A stretch of 4,758 nucleotides of DNA from a virus (Duplodnaviria > Heunggongvirae > Uroviricota > Caudoviricetes): IMG/VR virus record IMGVR_UViG_2802429219_000009; one strand, written 5' to 3'. The number at the start of each line of letters is the position of its first letter. The first letter of the stretch is position 1. The position numbers and the translations under genes are program-made. This document shows, one piece after another, positions 1-4,247 of this stretch. The notes under the pieces are model-generated. The model was not told where the DNA came from and searched no databases. It was given only the letters and a program-made list of their open reading frames with translations.

Positions 1-2160
1 GGTTTTCCGCCTTCACATGCCGGGACCATTACCGTCTATGAAGGTTCCAGACCAGGTACGCTGAATGATTTTCTCGGTGCCATGACGGAAGATGATGTCA
101 TGCCGGAGGCATTGCGTCGTTTTGAGGCAATGGTGGAAGAAGCGGCACGCAACGCTGAAGCCGCCTCTCAGAGCGCAGCAGCGGCAAAGAAATCCGAAAC
201 TGCAGCGGCATCATCGAAGAACGCGGCGAAAACCTCAGAAACGAATGCAGCTAACAGCGCACAGGCGGCAGCGTCCTCGCAGACTGCATCGGCAAACTCC
301 GCGACAGCAGCCAAAAAATCAGAAACCAATGCGAAAAACAGTGAGACAGCCGCAAAGACGAGCGAAACCAACGCAAAGTCCAGCCAGACGGCAGCGAAAA
401 CAAGCGAAACGAATGCCAAAGCCAGTGAAACTGCGGCGAAAAGCAGTCAGGATGCAGCAGCCGAAAGCGAGAGTGCTGCAGCTGGTTCTGCGACTTCAGC
501 AGCTGGATCAGCAACTGCTGCGGCTAACAGCCAGAAAGCCGCGAAGACGAGCGAAACTAACGCAAAGTCCAGCCAGACGGCAGCGAAGACCAGCGAAACG
601 AATGCCAAAGCCAGCGAAACTGCGGCGAAAAACAGTCAGGATGCAGCAGCCCAAAGCGAGAGTGCCGCAGCTGGTTCTGCAACAGCGGCAGCTAATAGCC
701 AAAAAGTTGCAAAAACCAGTGAAACTAACGCAAAGACGAGTGAAACAAAAGCAGCAGCCAGCGAGACAGAAGCAACGTCAGCCGCAACAAGAGCAGAGAA
801 TGCAGCCCGGATTGCAGAAGATGCCGCTGATCCTGCTTCTGTCCCTCCGCTTCCTGATATCTGGCTACCCTTGAATGATTCTCTGGAAGCGATAACAGGG
901 TATGCCCCGGGCTATAAAACAATAACCATCGGCAGTGATGAAATAACAATGCCTGTTAATGGCATATGCCAATTTAGCCGGGCTTCATCTGCAACGTATA
1001 TTGATAAGTCCGGGCATATTACCGTGGCAGGGAATAACGTTCCTCGTTTTGAAAAATATGGTTTGCTGATAGAGAATCAGCGAACAAACATGTTCGTAAA
1101 TAGTTTTAATCCTGATGCCTGGAATAAAAGCGGTGGTATATCTGTAACATCATCAACAGATGAATTTGAGTTTAAATATGGACGTTTCACGGTAGGAAGC
1201 GATATAGCAGGAACGACAACAGGGCGAAATATATGCACAGTTGCTGGTAACAAAGGCATAGATGTGACTGGCGATGATCAGTACAGTAAAGGTCCGTATG
1301 TTACCGCGTCGTTCAGGGTAAGAAGTGATCTCAATGTTCGCGCACGTATCCGTTTTGAACGATATAACTCGGAAGGATACACCTTCCTTTGCGACGCCTA
1401 TTTGTCATTACAGACCCATGAACTACAAATTACTGGTGGCAATGCCCAGCTATTAACAGCAAACTTTGAAATCGATCCAGGTAGTGGATGGATATATTTT
1501 CAGGCAACACTGAAATGTCTGCCAGAATGGGGAATGGTTGGTACGCAGCTGCAAATTGCAGCCGACAGAGCTGTGGGGTCTTTTGCAACAGGTGACTGGA
1601 TAGAAGTAACCACCCCGCAATTCGAGTATGGTGCTTGTGCAACTTCCTTCATCATAACGACAACTGAGCCAGCGACTCGTGCATCAGATTTATGTAAATT
1701 TCCGCTGATGAAAAATATGTATACCATGCCTTTTACGTTCATGGTGGAAGTCCATAAAAACTGGTTTATTTCTCATAATGCGGCACCGCGTGTCATTGAT
1801 TCAGAAAATCACCAGTCCGGAGGCCCATTTATTATGGGGTTTGGTTCTTCTGGAACTATTAGTCAGGACGGTTATTCGTATTGCGATATAGGCGGGGCTA
1901 ACCGACGTGTATATGAGTCATGCGGAGTAAGAGATCTTGTTATGGGATTCAGGGTTAAGGCTGACGGCATGACATGCTCATTTGCAAATAAGCATATAAG
2001 CACAGAAACAAAAACAGTATGGAAATATATTCGTGAAGCTGCTGTGATTCGTATCGGGGGACAAACGACGACAGGATTACGACACCTTAATGGTCATATA
2101 AAAAACCTCCGTTTCTGGAACAGAGCATTGTCAGATACGCAGCTTAAGGAATACGTATAA
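1..2160 (+). CDS. stf: Side tail fiber protein, 5'-partial (frame open from base 1; first in-window ATG at 82). Lambda Stf/StfR-like N-terminal region and Ala-rich repetitive shaft, then a different C-terminal tip ending in a LamG/concanavalin-like motif
   Basis: Frame 1 is open from nt 1 with no stop until TAA at 2158-2160. The translation begins GFPPSHAGTITVYEGSRPGTLNDFLGAMTEDD, which matches the conserved region of lambda Stf / E. coli StfR as I recall it. Residues about 30-250 are low-complexity KTSETNAK / AAxSxxAA repeats typical of Stf shafts. The C-terminus ends ...GLRHLNGHIKNLRFWNRALSDTQLKEYV, resembling the terminal strand of LamG-like jelly-roll domains. The alternate-frame and antisense ORFs over 92..949 are composition artifacts. 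Confidence 0.85.
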   Translation, partial: GFPPSHAGTITVYEGSRPGTLNDFLGAMTEDDVMPEALRRFEAMVEEAARNAEAASQSAAAAKKSETAAASSKNAAKTSETNAANSAQAAASSQTASANSATAAKKSETNAKNSETAAKTSETNAKSSQTAAKTSETNAKASETAAKSSQDAAAESESAAAGSATSAAGSATAAANSQKAAKTSETNAKSSQTAAKTSETNAKASETAAKNSQDAAAQSESAAAGSATAAANSQKVAKTSETNAKTSETKAAASETEATSAATRAENAARIAEDAADPASVPPLPDIWLPLNDSLEAITGYAPGYKTITIGSDEITMPVNGICQFSRASSATYIDKSGHITVAGNNVPRFEKYGLLIENQRTNMFVNSFNPDAWNKSGGISVTSSTDEFEFKYGRFTVGSDIAGTTTGRNICTVAGNKGIDVTGDDQYSKGPYVTASFRVRSDLNVRARIRFERYNSEGYTFLCDAYLSLQTHELQITGGNAQLLTANFEIDPGSGWIYFQATLKCLPEWGMVGTQLQIAADRAVGSFATGDWIEVTTPQFEYGACATSFIITTTEPATRASDLCKFPLMKNMYTMPFTFMVEVHKNWFISHNAAPRVIDSENHQSGGPFIMGFGSSGTISQDGYSYCDIGGANRRVYESCGVRDLVMGFRVKADGMTCSFANKHISTETKTVWKYIREAAVIRIGGQTTTGLRHLNGHIKNLRFWNRALSDTQLKEYV
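352..750 (+). repeat. In-frame tandem coding duplication in the fiber shaft: copy A 352..540 (189 bp), copy B 541..708 (168 bp), then a diverged partial third copy from 709. Copy A also carries an internal 21-bp duplication (481..501 and 502..522)
   Basis: Read directly: gcaaagacgagcgaaaccaacgcaaagtccagccagacggcagcg... at 352 recurs as gcgaagacgagcgaaactaacgcaaagtccagccagacggcagcg... at 541 with only scattered substitutions. The protein-level copies are AKTSETNAKSSQTAAKTSETNAKASETAAKSSQDAAAESESAAAGSAT(SAAGSAT)AAANSQKA and AKTSETNAKSSQTAAKTSETNAKASETAAKNSQDAAAQSESAAAGSATAAANSQKV. Confidence 0.8.
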
Positions 2161-2429
2161 TGCGGGATATAACATTACGATTCGATAACAGAGAACAGTT
2201 TAACGCAATTGTATATGACAGTGGCCTGTTCAGTCTTGAAGAAGAAAACGGGGTTCTTGTTGATGTTATTGGCTGCGTTATCGATTACGAGGAGCCAGAA
2301 AACGAAAGATGTACAGGCATTGATCGCGGTGGTTTTTTCGTAAATATGAGGATCGTTGATAGCAGTAAAAATATATCTTCTTTAATGCCTTTCATTACGA
2401 CAGATCAGCATGTAAGGACATGGGCTTAA
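2160..2429 (+). CDS. Hypothetical small acidic protein (89 aa), translationally coupled to the tail fiber gene; function unknown
   Basis: ATG at 2160 overlaps the stf stop (TAATG). AAGGA at 2146-2150 lies 9 nt upstream of the ATG. The ORF is co-directional and tightly packed with its neighbours, with no hydrophobic segment. I recognise no family by eye. Confidence 0.55.
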   Translation: MRDITLRFDNREQFNAIVYDSGLFSLEEENGVLVDVIGCVIDYEEPENERCTGIDRGGFFVNMRIVDSSKNISSLMPFITTDQHVRTWA

Positions 2430-2441
2430 TGGAGTAAGACA

Positions 2442-3125
2442 ATGGTTACAAAAACAGTAATTCCGGGAGACATCACCACGCTAAAGGGAGATATTTCCTC
2501 AATTAACGGAAAAGTATCAACGCTTCAGACTGAGATGACCAGTGCAAAGCAGGATATCAGCTCCAGATACACAAAAACTGAAGTTGATAATAAGCTGAAA
2601 AACAAAGTGGAAGTGAACGATCTGGAAAGTGGTCGTTATGGCGGAGATTTTTATCCACTGACAGGTCGTGAAGCGTTTTATTTATGGAATTTGGCCACGA
2701 CTACAGCGGCGGCAAACCTTTATCTTAATCCTGACCCCGCAATTTCGTCTGTGCTGCGGTCAACATCGTCTATCCGCTATAAACATTCAGTAGAGACAAT
2801 AGATTCAGAGCACGCTGATCTCATTTTCAGGATGCGCCCTGTGTGGTACAGGTCACAATGCGAAAATGACAGGCGTGACTGGGGATTCTACGGATTGATT
2901 GCCGAGGAAGTAGGAGAAATTGCCCCTCAGTTTGTACACTGGCGACCAGCTAACGAAGATGATGCACCGGAAGCTATTTCCAGCAATGGCCTTGTTGCCG
3001 AAGGTGTAATGTACGAACGTCTGGTTGTTCCACTGATTCACCATATCCAGAAGCTGACTGAAAGAGTTGATGAACTTGAGTCAGAATTAAAGTTGTTATC
3101 CGTTTCCCGAAGCGATATCGGATAA
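2442..3125 (+). CDS. Tail fiber-like protein (227 aa) with an N-terminal coiled-coil-like segment and a C-terminal intramolecular chaperone domain (peptidase S74 / endosialidase-chaperone type)
   Basis: GGAG at 2431-2434 lies 7 nt upstream of the ATG at 2442. Residues about 105-220 (nt about 2754-3101) read SSIRYKHSVETIDSEHADLIFRMRPVWYRS...WGFYGLIAEEVGEIAPQFVHW...GLVAEGVMYERLVVPLIHHIQKLTERVDELESELKLL. This follows the S74 chaperone pattern (S-D-x-R-x-K-x-N-I ... P-V-x-Y ... G-F-I-A-Q-E-V ... Y-x-x-L-I-P-L-L-I-x-A-I-x-E-L ... coiled coil) recalled from endosialidase and T5 L-shaped fiber C-termini. Confidence 0.8.
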   Translation: MVTKTVIPGDITTLKGDISSINGKVSTLQTEMTSAKQDISSRYTKTEVDNKLKNKVEVNDLESGRYGGDFYPLTGREAFYLWNLATTTAAANLYLNPDPAISSVLRSTSSIRYKHSVETIDSEHADLIFRMRPVWYRSQCENDRRDWGFYGLIAEEVGEIAPQFVHWRPANEDDAPEAISSNGLVAEGVMYERLVVPLIHHIQKLTERVDELESELKLLSVSRSDIG

Positions 3126-3135
3126 AGGAGGAGTA

Positions 3136-3429
3136 ATGGATATAACACCTTTCCTTCATGCACTTTGTGCTGTGGCTGCGCAGGTACTGATTGGCCTTTT
3201 TACCGGAAACTGGGTTTACGGTGCGATAGCTGGTTGTACGTTCTTCATTGCGCGTGAACACACCCAGGCAGAATATCGCTGGATTGAAATGTTCGGGCAT
3301 GGCAAGCGGATTAACATGCCGTGGTGGGGCGGTTTTGATCCGCGTGTTTGGGATGTGGCAAGCCTGATAGATTTTGCTGTGCCGGTGGTGGCGTGTCTGC
3401 TGGTCTGGCTGTTGGTTAATCGTGGGTGA
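3136..3429 (+). CDS. Small hydrophobic membrane protein (97 aa, 2-3 predicted transmembrane segments), function unknown; candidate lysogenic-conversion or superinfection-exclusion gene
   Basis: A strong RBS (AAGGAGG at about 3125-3131) lies 5-6 nt upstream of the ATG at 3136. There are hydrophobic stretches at residues about 6-38 (FLHALCAVAAQVLIGLFTGNWVYGAIAGCTFFIA) and about 74-94 (VASLIDFAVPVVACLLVWLLV). It is the last gene of the co-directional block. Confidence 0.7.
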   Translation: MDITPFLHALCAVAAQVLIGLFTGNWVYGAIAGCTFFIAREHTQAEYRWIEMFGHGKRINMPWWGGFDPRVWDVASLIDFAVPVVACLLVWLLVNRG

Positions 3430-3656: not shown

Positions 3657-4247
3657 TTATATGTCAGGTGTCTGAAGTTTTGCTTTGGCTCTTAAAATGG
3701 TTTGCCGCGAGGTTTTGAATTCCCGGGCAATGGCACTTATACTTACACCTGACTTAATCCGTTCGAATACCACCTGTTTCTGTTCTTCATTTAACACAGG
3801 TGGTCGACCAAAACGTTTCCCTGCGCCCCGGGCTCTTACTATCCCGGAATGAGTGCGTTCAAGTAAAAGGTCTCGTTCAAATTCAGCGACTGCTGAAATT
3901 ACTTGCATCATCATTTTTCCTGTTGGACTGGTCAGGTCAATGCCCCCCAATGCTAAGCAATGCACTCTGATACCTGTTTCGGTCAGTTGTTCCACTGTTT
4001 TCCTGATATCCATTGCATTACAACCAAGGCGATCCAATTTTGTCACAATCAATTGATCACCACATTTCAGGCGAGCAAGCAACCGGTTAAAACCAGGACG
4101 CTCACTGGTTGCTGCTGAGCCGCTAATGTGTTCTTCGATTATTTGCTGAGGTTTGATTTTAAAACCTGCACTTTCGATTTCCCGGCGTTGATTTTCGGTG
4201 GTCTGATCCAGCGTTGATATCCGACAGTAAGCAAAAATTCGAGACAT
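3657..4247 (-). CDS. pinR: Serine recombinase / DNA invertase of the Pin family (PinR/PinQ-like), 196 aa
   Basis: Intact 196-aa ORF on the - strand. The N-terminus [15 protein letters not shown] carries the catalytic-serine motif of resolvase/invertase-type serine recombinases (Ser at position 11), and the C-terminus has an HTH-like segment ([21 protein letters not shown]). From memory this is essentially the E. coli cryptic-prophage PinR/PinQ sequence; I cannot distinguish pinR from pinQ here. Its placement convergent to the stf/tfa genes matches Rac/Qin/e14 organisation. Confidence 0.92.

Follow-up and report, generated by a model that had tools for sequence, protein, structure and literature searches.

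The window analysed here is a stretch of 4,758 nucleotides (nt) from a tailed virus (Caudoviricetes; IMG/VR record IMGVR_UViG_2802429219_000009), and the element under study is orf97, a small gene that lies directly behind the receptor-binding genes of the window and encodes a 97-residue membrane protein. The window is a Qin-type lambdoid prophage. It is 100% identical to the lambdoid prophage at the ydfJ (Qin) locus of Escherichia coli ECAMP047, in which the genes follow the order tail L, K, I and J, lom, stf, orf89, a 227-residue fibre, orf97, a tfa pseudogene fragment, pinQ and ydfK (Table 1). An earlier note, made from the DNA letters alone, had described orf97 as a candidate receptor-masking or superinfection-exclusion gene of the moron type. 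The features on which that proposal was built were confirmed: the 97-residue protein lies exactly at 3136-3429, on the plus strand; the Shine-Dalgarno sequence called near-perfect is in fact perfect (AAGGAGG, 4 nt before the ATG); and the two to three hydrophobic helices correspond to two strong segments and one weaker segment in the hydropathy profile and to three helices in an AlphaFold2 model. The mechanism proposed in the earlier note fared differently. The product of orf97 probably acts on the host cell envelope, and masking of an outer membrane receptor is the least credible of the ways in which it might do so.

orf97 is a genuine gene under purifying selection at the protein level, far beyond a chance open reading frame (ORF). 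It was intact in all 80 IMG/VR copies examined, and the ratio of nonsynonymous to synonymous substitution rates (dN/dS) across 41 distinct alleles is 0.135. Residues 1-96 of the protein match positions 1-96 of the 97 in the PHROG 1443 profile (E=3.4e-58). Clustering of the homologous proteins yields 566 groups at 90% identity and 425 at 50%, and each of the latter represents a stand-alone protein of 58-146 residues. The family is thus already catalogued, as PHROG 1443, although no function has been assigned to it; a family protein bears the UniRef name Ybl63. A literature search under the phage names, the PHROG number, the accessions and ybl63 found nothing relevant.

The translation signals of orf97 are closely tied to the gene upstream. 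The TAA stop codon of the fibre gene occupies 3123-3125, leaving 10 nt between the two genes. The 15-nt leader of orf97 is identical in 33 of 80 viral loci, and 14 more carry single-base variants of it. In the same 80 loci, orf97 starts 10 nt behind the upstream gene in 44 cases and 42 nt behind it in five; the other 31 have no ORF of at least 150 codons directly upstream of orf97. No sigma70-like promoter was found on the plus strand between positions 2000 and 3714 of the window, in a consensus scan that may miss weak or internal promoters, and a plus-strand scan of the window found no intrinsic terminator flanking the gene. Because flanking signals of both kinds were not found and the gap to the upstream gene is small, orf97 is placed in the late fibre transcription unit. 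Judged from these sequence features, it appears to be coupled, both transcriptionally and translationally, to whichever fibre or spike gene lies upstream.

Table 1. Position of orf97, its ribosome-binding site, the segments of its protein and the neighbouring genes in the window
Feature	Position	Strand	Description
stf (side tail fibre)	82-2160	+	Cut at the left edge of the window; Ala/Ser/Thr/Glu-rich repeats, then head-spike-fibre domain
orf89	2160-2429	+	PHROG 1361, unknown function; small soluble ORF after stf
Short tail fibre, 227 residues	2442-3125	+	C-terminal Peptidase_S74 intramolecular chaperone domain; orf97 is coupled to this gene
Shine-Dalgarno sequence AAGGAGG	3125-3131	+	4 nt 5' of the ATG; shares its first base with the end of the upstream TAA
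orf97	3136-3429	+	ATG start, 97 codons and TGA; PHROG 1443 membrane protein, three helices in AlphaFold2
Helix 1 (residues 4-23)	3145-3204	+	Hydrophobic; near-invariant H8, conserved Q16
Helix 2 (residues 26-53)	3211-3294	+	Short hydrophobic part 26-39, then amphipathic R40-E41-H-T-Q44-A45-E46-Y-R48-W-I
Conserved polar core (residues 40-72)	3253-3351	+	RE.(T/A)QAEYRWI..FG.G.R.NMPWWGGFD.R.W
Helix 3 (residues 74-96)	3355-3423	+	Most hydrophobic; D79 (84%), P83 (98%)
tfa 3' remnant, 37 codons	3449-3559	+	RefSeq pseudogene; tail fibre assembly gene
pinQ-type serine invertase	3657-4247	-	Adjoins the fibre cassette

The position behind receptor-binding genes, which the earlier note had stressed, extends well beyond this prophage. 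In the window, orf97 follows stf, orf89 and the fibre with its S74 chaperone domain, and in at least five unrelated phage architectures its homologs likewise follow receptor-binding genes directly and in the same orientation. In lambdoid phages the homolog follows either an S74 fibre or an stf-orf92 pair. In the P22-like podovirus JEP4 it overlaps the tailspike stop codon by 4 nt and occupies the slot between tailspike and integrase. Among P2-like prophages, that of Leclercia has the homolog 0 nt after a 939-residue S74 fibre, and one of E. coli has the order fibre H, a 75-residue ORF, the orf97 homolog, an invertase and the sheath gene. The homolog lies behind gpJ and a pectate-lyase spike in a Citrobacter prophage, behind gpJ in Comamonas prophages, and behind a 935-residue tail spike in a Desulfovibrio prophage. 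A contig of 160,376 bp from a Salmonella enterica assembly, Kuttervirus-like in its length and tail genes, holds an intact homolog between two tailspike genes; at the equivalent place, Kuttervirus KFSST3 has only an unannotated, truncated remnant of 52 residues. Finally, another E. coli prophage has an SGNH-esterase spike before the homolog and a complete lysis cassette behind it.

The gene is also abundant. It occurs in 1,887 of 5,426 complete E. coli genomes (35%), with a median of two copies and a maximum of seven, and is always annotated as hypothetical. Seventy sequenced phages carry it, phage 21 included, where the homolog (CPT_21_24, annotated as a putative membrane protein) is 91.8% identical to orf97 and begins 12 nt behind a 92-residue ORF. 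The region behind the phage 21 fibre cassette is a cargo hotspot; after the orf97 homolog, the stretch 5386-8835 of that phage carries a complete sitABCD iron/manganese transporter operon on the opposite strand. A copy of 95% identity was also seen on a 2.8-kb contig of a metagenome-assembled genome labelled Collinsella sp. (actinobacterial); binning contamination, rather than a homolog from a Gram-positive organism, is almost certainly the explanation.

Comparison of flanking sequences shows that orf97 does not co-vary with the adjacent fibre. Alleles of at least 92% identity occur in at least six upstream and 13 downstream sequence contexts. Between the window and phage 21, the fibres differ and the orf89 family protein is only 32% identical, against the 91.8% of orf97. 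Mosaic breakpoints coincide with the edges of the gene: the matches of Tritos, HannyBb and PhiR63_1 to the window start at 3135, and that of PhiR55_1 ends at 3414. Turner, Kati, PhiR42_1 and mEp460_ev081 have the tfa-3'/pinQ side in common with the window and lack orf97; Tritos and 2G7b carry orf97 with different flanks. The gene is swapped between phage types within a host group. In a neighbour-joining tree, built without bootstrap, sequences cluster by host taxon and not by phage type, and genus-specific chromosomal clades are nested among the phage-borne copies.

Those chromosomal clades reflect a second kind of distribution, since many species-representative genomes hold an orf97 homolog without phage genes nearby. 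In five Aeromonas loci a syntenic homolog lies between a Pirin gene and a block comprising a RIO1/lipopolysaccharide (LPS)-kinase-like gene and two lipid A acyltransferase genes; it is convergent with that block and not in an operon with it. These lipid A neighbours are either a possible hint of an LPS connection or a coincidence. In Leclercia the homolog is upstream of a gene with a Meth_synt_2 domain (cobalamin-independent methionine-synthase-like) and of ABC-transporter genes, in Silvania it is near porin and pyruvate-oxidoreductase genes, and in sphingomonads it is beside ligA, a gene for DAHP synthase and further housekeeping genes. In one metagenomic lineage it belongs to an island that also holds toxin-antitoxin, Fic and transposase genes. 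No conserved operon partners of the chromosomal copies were found beyond synteny at genus level. Because these copies exist without phage genes, the protein is likely to work alone in the bacterial cell, and their retention would suit an accessory gene that acts on the host.

The protein itself combines variable membrane helices with a strongly conserved polar core. Kyte-Doolittle values over 19 residues reach maxima of 1.88 (residues 3-21) and 2.45 (residues 76-94); the strong hydrophobic segments extend over about 3-24 and 74-94, with a weaker middle segment at about 26-39. The AlphaFold2 model, computed with 30 homologs, has a mean predicted local distance difference test score of 89.8 and a predicted template modelling score of 0.71, and places helices at residues 4-23, 26-53 and 74-96 with an ordered loop at 54-73. 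Conservation was assessed in 108 diverse family members with mutual identities of about 50% or less. Across this set E41 and W72 are invariant, H8, R40, Q44, A45, E46 and P83 are conserved in at least 95%, and R48, R58 and D79 in 84-89%, whereas the hydrophobic helices vary freely. In the model, the polar cluster of H8, R40, E41, Q44, E46, R48, R58, W72, D79 and P83 gathers at one end of the three helices. This pattern looks like a ligand-binding or catalytic site rather than a bare membrane anchor.

Homology searches gave no further clue to function. No relatives of orf97 were found in Pfam, NCBIfam, PADLOC, the Protein Data Bank or by fold comparison, and neither orf97 nor any of the 108 family members has a significant Pfam match. 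An hmmscan of orf97 against PHROGs (E up to 0.1) returned only PHROG 1443, 34165 and 9191, all of unknown function, and one against Pfam (E up to 1) returned a single non-significant match, to PhoR. The orientation of the protein in the membrane was approached from two sides. Family-wide counts of Lys and Arg average 5.3 in the conserved loop and 0.2 in the turn between helices 1 and 2, which would place the loop in the cytoplasm; the basic C-terminal tails of chromosomal members and a TMHMM/SignalP note in the phage 21 record would place it outside the cytoplasm.

Taken together, these observations tentatively favour the view that orf97 is a self-sufficient accessory protein that acts on the envelope and makes the cell refractory to phage at a stage beyond receptor binding. 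The protein would insert into the inner membrane of the cell that produces it, and its conserved polar site would engage a conserved component of the envelope, either a lipid-linked molecule or an inner membrane complex of Proteobacteria. Such a target is suggested by the constancy of orf97: since it stays invariant while the adjacent fibres change, it must touch something conserved in the envelope. The cell would then no longer be a productive target for an incoming phage, which would be blocked at envelope crossing or genome entry in a manner resembling T4 Imm, P22 SieA and HK97 gp15. Given the location in a late operon, orf97 would take effect chiefly once phage production in the cell is under way, and the chromosomal copies would give the same protection constitutively. 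Within this reading, the best explanation is that orf97 is neither a part of the virion nor a receptor mask.

Precedents for such a protein are known. Small inner membrane exclusion proteins exist, as T4 Imm, P22 SieA and HK97 gp15 illustrate, and like them orf97 is a small phage-encoded protein that is predicted to reside in the inner membrane and to act autonomously. Furthermore, accessory or exclusion genes often adjoin receptor-binding genes, examples being T5 llp, cor and P22 gtrABC. orf97 nevertheless differs from Imm, SieA and gp15, with which it has no detectable homology. These three are narrowly distributed and are expressed either early or from the prophage, whereas orf97 lies in a late operon, extends across several proteobacterial classes and has chromosomal orthologs. 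The accessory-gene part of the earlier proposal is plausible, in that the position behind receptor-binding genes and the stand-alone copies fit a host-acting role; the mechanism proposed with it and the analogues named for it are not supported. The term moron, in the sense of Hendrix and Juhala, applies in part as well. The GC content of orf97 (52%) and its GC content at third codon positions (51%) deviate from those of the neighbouring phage genes (39-48% and 36-41%, respectively), and the gene is present or absent among related phages; on the other hand, no promoter or terminator of its own was found, and it is separated from the upstream gene by a gap of 10-42 nt or overlaps it.

Several points weigh against an exclusion role, which is best taken as a guess. 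No homology of orf97 to known exclusion or defence families was found in PHROGs, PADLOC or Pfam. With no promoter or terminator of its own found, expression in lysogens is unsupported. Up to seven copies coexist in one E. coli genome, so phages that encode orf97 themselves are not excluded by it. Rapid evolution and a narrow range are typical of known exclusion proteins; the invariant, enzyme-like core of orf97, by contrast, is preserved across Alpha-, Beta- and Gammaproteobacteria and Desulfovibrio. The conserved synteny in Aeromonas looks more like that of a housekeeping gene than of a defence gene. Finally, the Lys and Arg counts conflict with the C-terminal tails and the TMHMM/SignalP note on the side of the membrane at which the conserved loop lies.

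The alternative that survives best, although it is unlikely, is that orf97 modulates the biogenesis of surface glycans or of their lipid carriers. In this case the invariant cluster of His, Glu, Asp and Arg residues at the membrane interface would bind, or act upon, a lipid-linked intermediate of universal occurrence, for instance an undecaprenyl-(pyro)phosphate-linked glycan, or a conserved enzyme of the pathway, and the polysaccharide recognised by the adjacent fibre or spike would be reduced or altered, amounting to a shut-off of receptor supply or to seroconversion. Every identifiable receptor-binding protein upstream of an orf97 homolog is of a glycan-directed type, whether an S74 chaperone fibre, a pectate-lyase spike, a P22-like tailspike, an SGNH esterase or a protein with a head-spike-fibre domain. 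The invariant core, enzyme-like and independent of fibre specificity, points the same way, as do the chromosomal copies, whose bacterial hosts all rely on polyprenyl carriers and which in Aeromonas lie near two lipid A acyltransferase genes. The tailspike-integrase slot, which holds gtrABC in P22 and oac in Sf6, is filled in JEP4 by the orf97 homolog. Seroconversion genes have been described near int-att-xis (PMC8787464).

The resemblance to the lysogenic-conversion genes P22 gtrABC and Sf6 oac and to the epsilon15 polymerase inhibitor thus lies in the slot occupied in JEP4, in the membrane location and in the company of glycan-directed spikes. The differences are substantial. orf97 has no GtrA, acyltransferase or Wzy homology and lacks partner genes; where those systems have a regulated promoter of their own, it is coupled to the spike gene. 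Neither orf97 nor the 108 family members show similarity to GtrA (PF04138), acetyltransferases, Wzy or any other Pfam family, and 97 residues is very small for an enzyme. No gtrB- or gtrC-like partner lies adjacent, the annotated neighbours being fibre, invertase, integrase and lysis genes; in Aeromonas the homolog runs convergently to the lipid A genes and forms no operon with them. The glycan explanation would also need recasting if the conserved loop were cytoplasmic. One published experiment appeared relevant: hyp24 of phage Kapi1, which lies between tail spike and integrase, was assayed for O-antigen or LPS modification and caused none (PMC8787464). However, hyp24 was rejected as an orf97 homolog: it is an ORF of 34 codons, runs on the opposite strand and does not belong to the family, and because of this lack of homology the negative result is not applicable to orf97. 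SNIPE, a membrane nuclease, was considered as a relative and set aside as unrelated (PMC13190303).

A bolder and doubtful version of this idea is that orf97 stands for an undescribed class of tiny membrane enzymes or modulators whose His/Glu/Asp/Arg active site would act on a universal lipid-linked intermediate of the envelope, for example undecaprenyl-pyrophosphate-linked glycan. Many types of phage would have joined this generic 'receptor-supply switch' to their glycan-directed receptor-binding genes, and bacteria would have domesticated it repeatedly.

It is improbable that orf97 is a small membrane protein of cellular housekeeping, without a phage-specific role, that merely hitch-hikes at the 3' edge of fibre cassettes, with its DNA serving as a recombination anchor for swaps of fibre modules. 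Mosaic breakpoints exactly at the edges of the gene, chromosomal copies among housekeeping neighbours, and GC contents above those of the flanking phage genes, overall and at third codon positions, are what would be expected of such a passenger. The low dN/dS, however, reflects selection on the protein within the phage copies themselves, the ribosome-binding site is perfect, and the gene was acquired or kept beside receptor-binding genes by phages and hosts so different that DNA homology is no explanation for the placement.

A role as an assembly or maturation factor for the fibre or spike, in the position usually held by Tfa, is quite improbable. Like lambda Tfa, P2 G and Mu U, orf97 is encoded in the slot directly behind the fibre; in the window it precedes the 3' remnant of tfa, and the P2-like homolog is found where gene G would be. 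The tight translational coupling to the fibre gene would suit such a role, as would the occurrence of a homolog in a Kuttervirus-like genome, Kuttervirus being a genus of virulent phages. Tfa, however, is a soluble chaperone with Pfam and PHROG families of its own, whereas orf97 is a membrane protein without similarity to it. Tail fibres fold in the cytoplasm, where a membrane protein would be an odd chaperone, and S74 domains are self-chaperoning. In addition, orf97 is unchanged beside structurally unrelated fibres and spikes, its stand-alone chromosomal copies have no fibre gene nearby, and the truncated remnant in Kuttervirus KFSST3 indicates that it is dispensable there.

Even less can be said for a holin-like or lysis-timing membrane protein, which is a highly unlikely identity for orf97. 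In its length of about 100 residues and its three hydrophobic helices the family resembles class I holins such as lambda S and P2 Y, as it does in the basic C-terminus that some members have. Lysis genes are placed after fibre or spike genes in T7 and epsilon15, and in one E. coli prophage the orf97 homolog lies directly before the lysis cassette. The phages that host orf97, however, already have full lysis cassettes: the one behind this homolog comprises two holins, an endolysin and a spanin, and in the window orf97 belongs to the fibre cassette. No holin family in Pfam or PHROGs matches orf97, and of the 108 members a single one has a Phage_holin_8 match, which is not significant (E=0.0036). 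Holins do not typically have an invariant polar loop of 35 residues, and the gene is stably inherited in chromosomes. As regards the N-out/C-in topology of class I holins, three helices are predicted for orf97 and the charge counts conflict on orientation.

The remaining explanation, that orf97 masks an outer membrane receptor in the manner of T5 Llp or of Cor from phi80 and N15, is scarcely credible: its sole supporting point is that orf97, like llp and the cor genes of phi80, N15 and HK022, is a small accessory gene adjoining a receptor-binding gene. Its product is predicted to be a polytopic inner membrane protein with three integral helices, and a protein of that kind could not shield an outer membrane receptor as Llp and Cor do. 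Llp and Cor are exported lipoproteins that act on the outer membrane receptor FhuA, and proteins of the Llp type are matched in specificity to the phage that encodes them. The protein of orf97 has neither a signal peptide with lipobox nor any other outer membrane targeting signal; its only N-terminal cysteine (C11) is preceded by H-A-L, with no lipobox of the form [LVI][ASTVI][GAS]C and no basic n-region, and position 11 is isoleucine in 49% of the 108 family members, so that the cysteine is not conserved. No similarity to Llp, Cor or annotated exclusion families was found in PHROGs or Pfam. orf97 is unchanged beside fibres of different specificity, and its homologs occur in Proteobacteria far from E. 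coli, for example in sphingomonads and Desulfovibrio. The analogy to Llp and Cor drawn in the earlier note is therefore not supported.

By its likely role, orf97 is probably a variant of the accessory genes that adjoin receptor-binding genes. It is among the commonest uncharacterised prophage genes of E. coli, known there under the E. coli B-style name Ybl63, and its family accompanies receptor-binding genes in phages of the siphovirus, myovirus, podovirus and Ackermannviridae types in several proteobacterial classes. Identification of the target would reveal either a general mechanism of exclusion or a general way in which phages manipulate envelope biogenesis, and would also explain why bacteria retain stand-alone copies. 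In addition, orf97 marks the 3' edge of exchangeable fibre cassettes and could thus aid the annotation and engineering of host range.

The genes that surround orf97 in the window carry traces of such exchange. The short tail fibre has a modular build: residues 1-45 correspond to the N-terminus of PHROG 4563, a 346-residue fibre at the same position in Tritos and in E. ruysiae, and as a whole it aligns to the C-terminal 240 or so residues of the 1385-position PHROG 3299 profile, S74 chaperone domain included. This arrangement suggests interchangeable distal fibres with a common docking segment. Upstream, stf contains near-repeats of the form SETNAK.S..AAKTSETNAK..., especially at positions 100-900, with a very strong excess of A over T (AT skew up to 0.66). 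It forms one ORF of 692 codons in the window, as opposed to an N-terminal pseudogene fragment and a 403-residue 'head spike fiber domain' coding sequence in RefSeq; a frameshift near the 5' end of the gene, or an annotation error, may account for the difference.

The start of orf89 overlaps the stop of stf, and orf89 is always found behind this type of stf. It diverges with the fibre type, at 31-54% identity between cassettes, and looks fibre-specific, which makes it a candidate adaptor or chaperone for stf or for the short fibre. As a conserved partner of orf97 it was rejected, given that the ORFs preceding the homologs in P2-like (75 residues) and Comamonas (72 residues) prophages are not homologous to it.

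Downstream of orf97, the tfa remnant of 37 codons is the scar of a classical stf-tfa pair, whose distal part has been replaced by the present fibre cassette. Turner, Kati and PhiR42_1 have a normal tfa at this place and align with the window only from about 3449 onwards. The megablast matches of 2G7b, ev243 and PhiR49_1 span orf97 up to about 3546, indicating that orf97 and the tfa remnant move together. No convincing inverted repeats that would define a Pin-invertible segment were found in the window, and pinQ may be an orphan invertase that remained after the cassette was replaced. The succession of fibre, small ORF, orf97 homolog and invertase recurs in P2-like prophages of E. coli. No Rfam RNA families were found anywhere in the window. 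Downstream of pinQ, between 4250 and 4758, the GC content falls to 35-40%, and this stretch runs into ydfK, a cold-shock-like gene that is cut by the end of the window.

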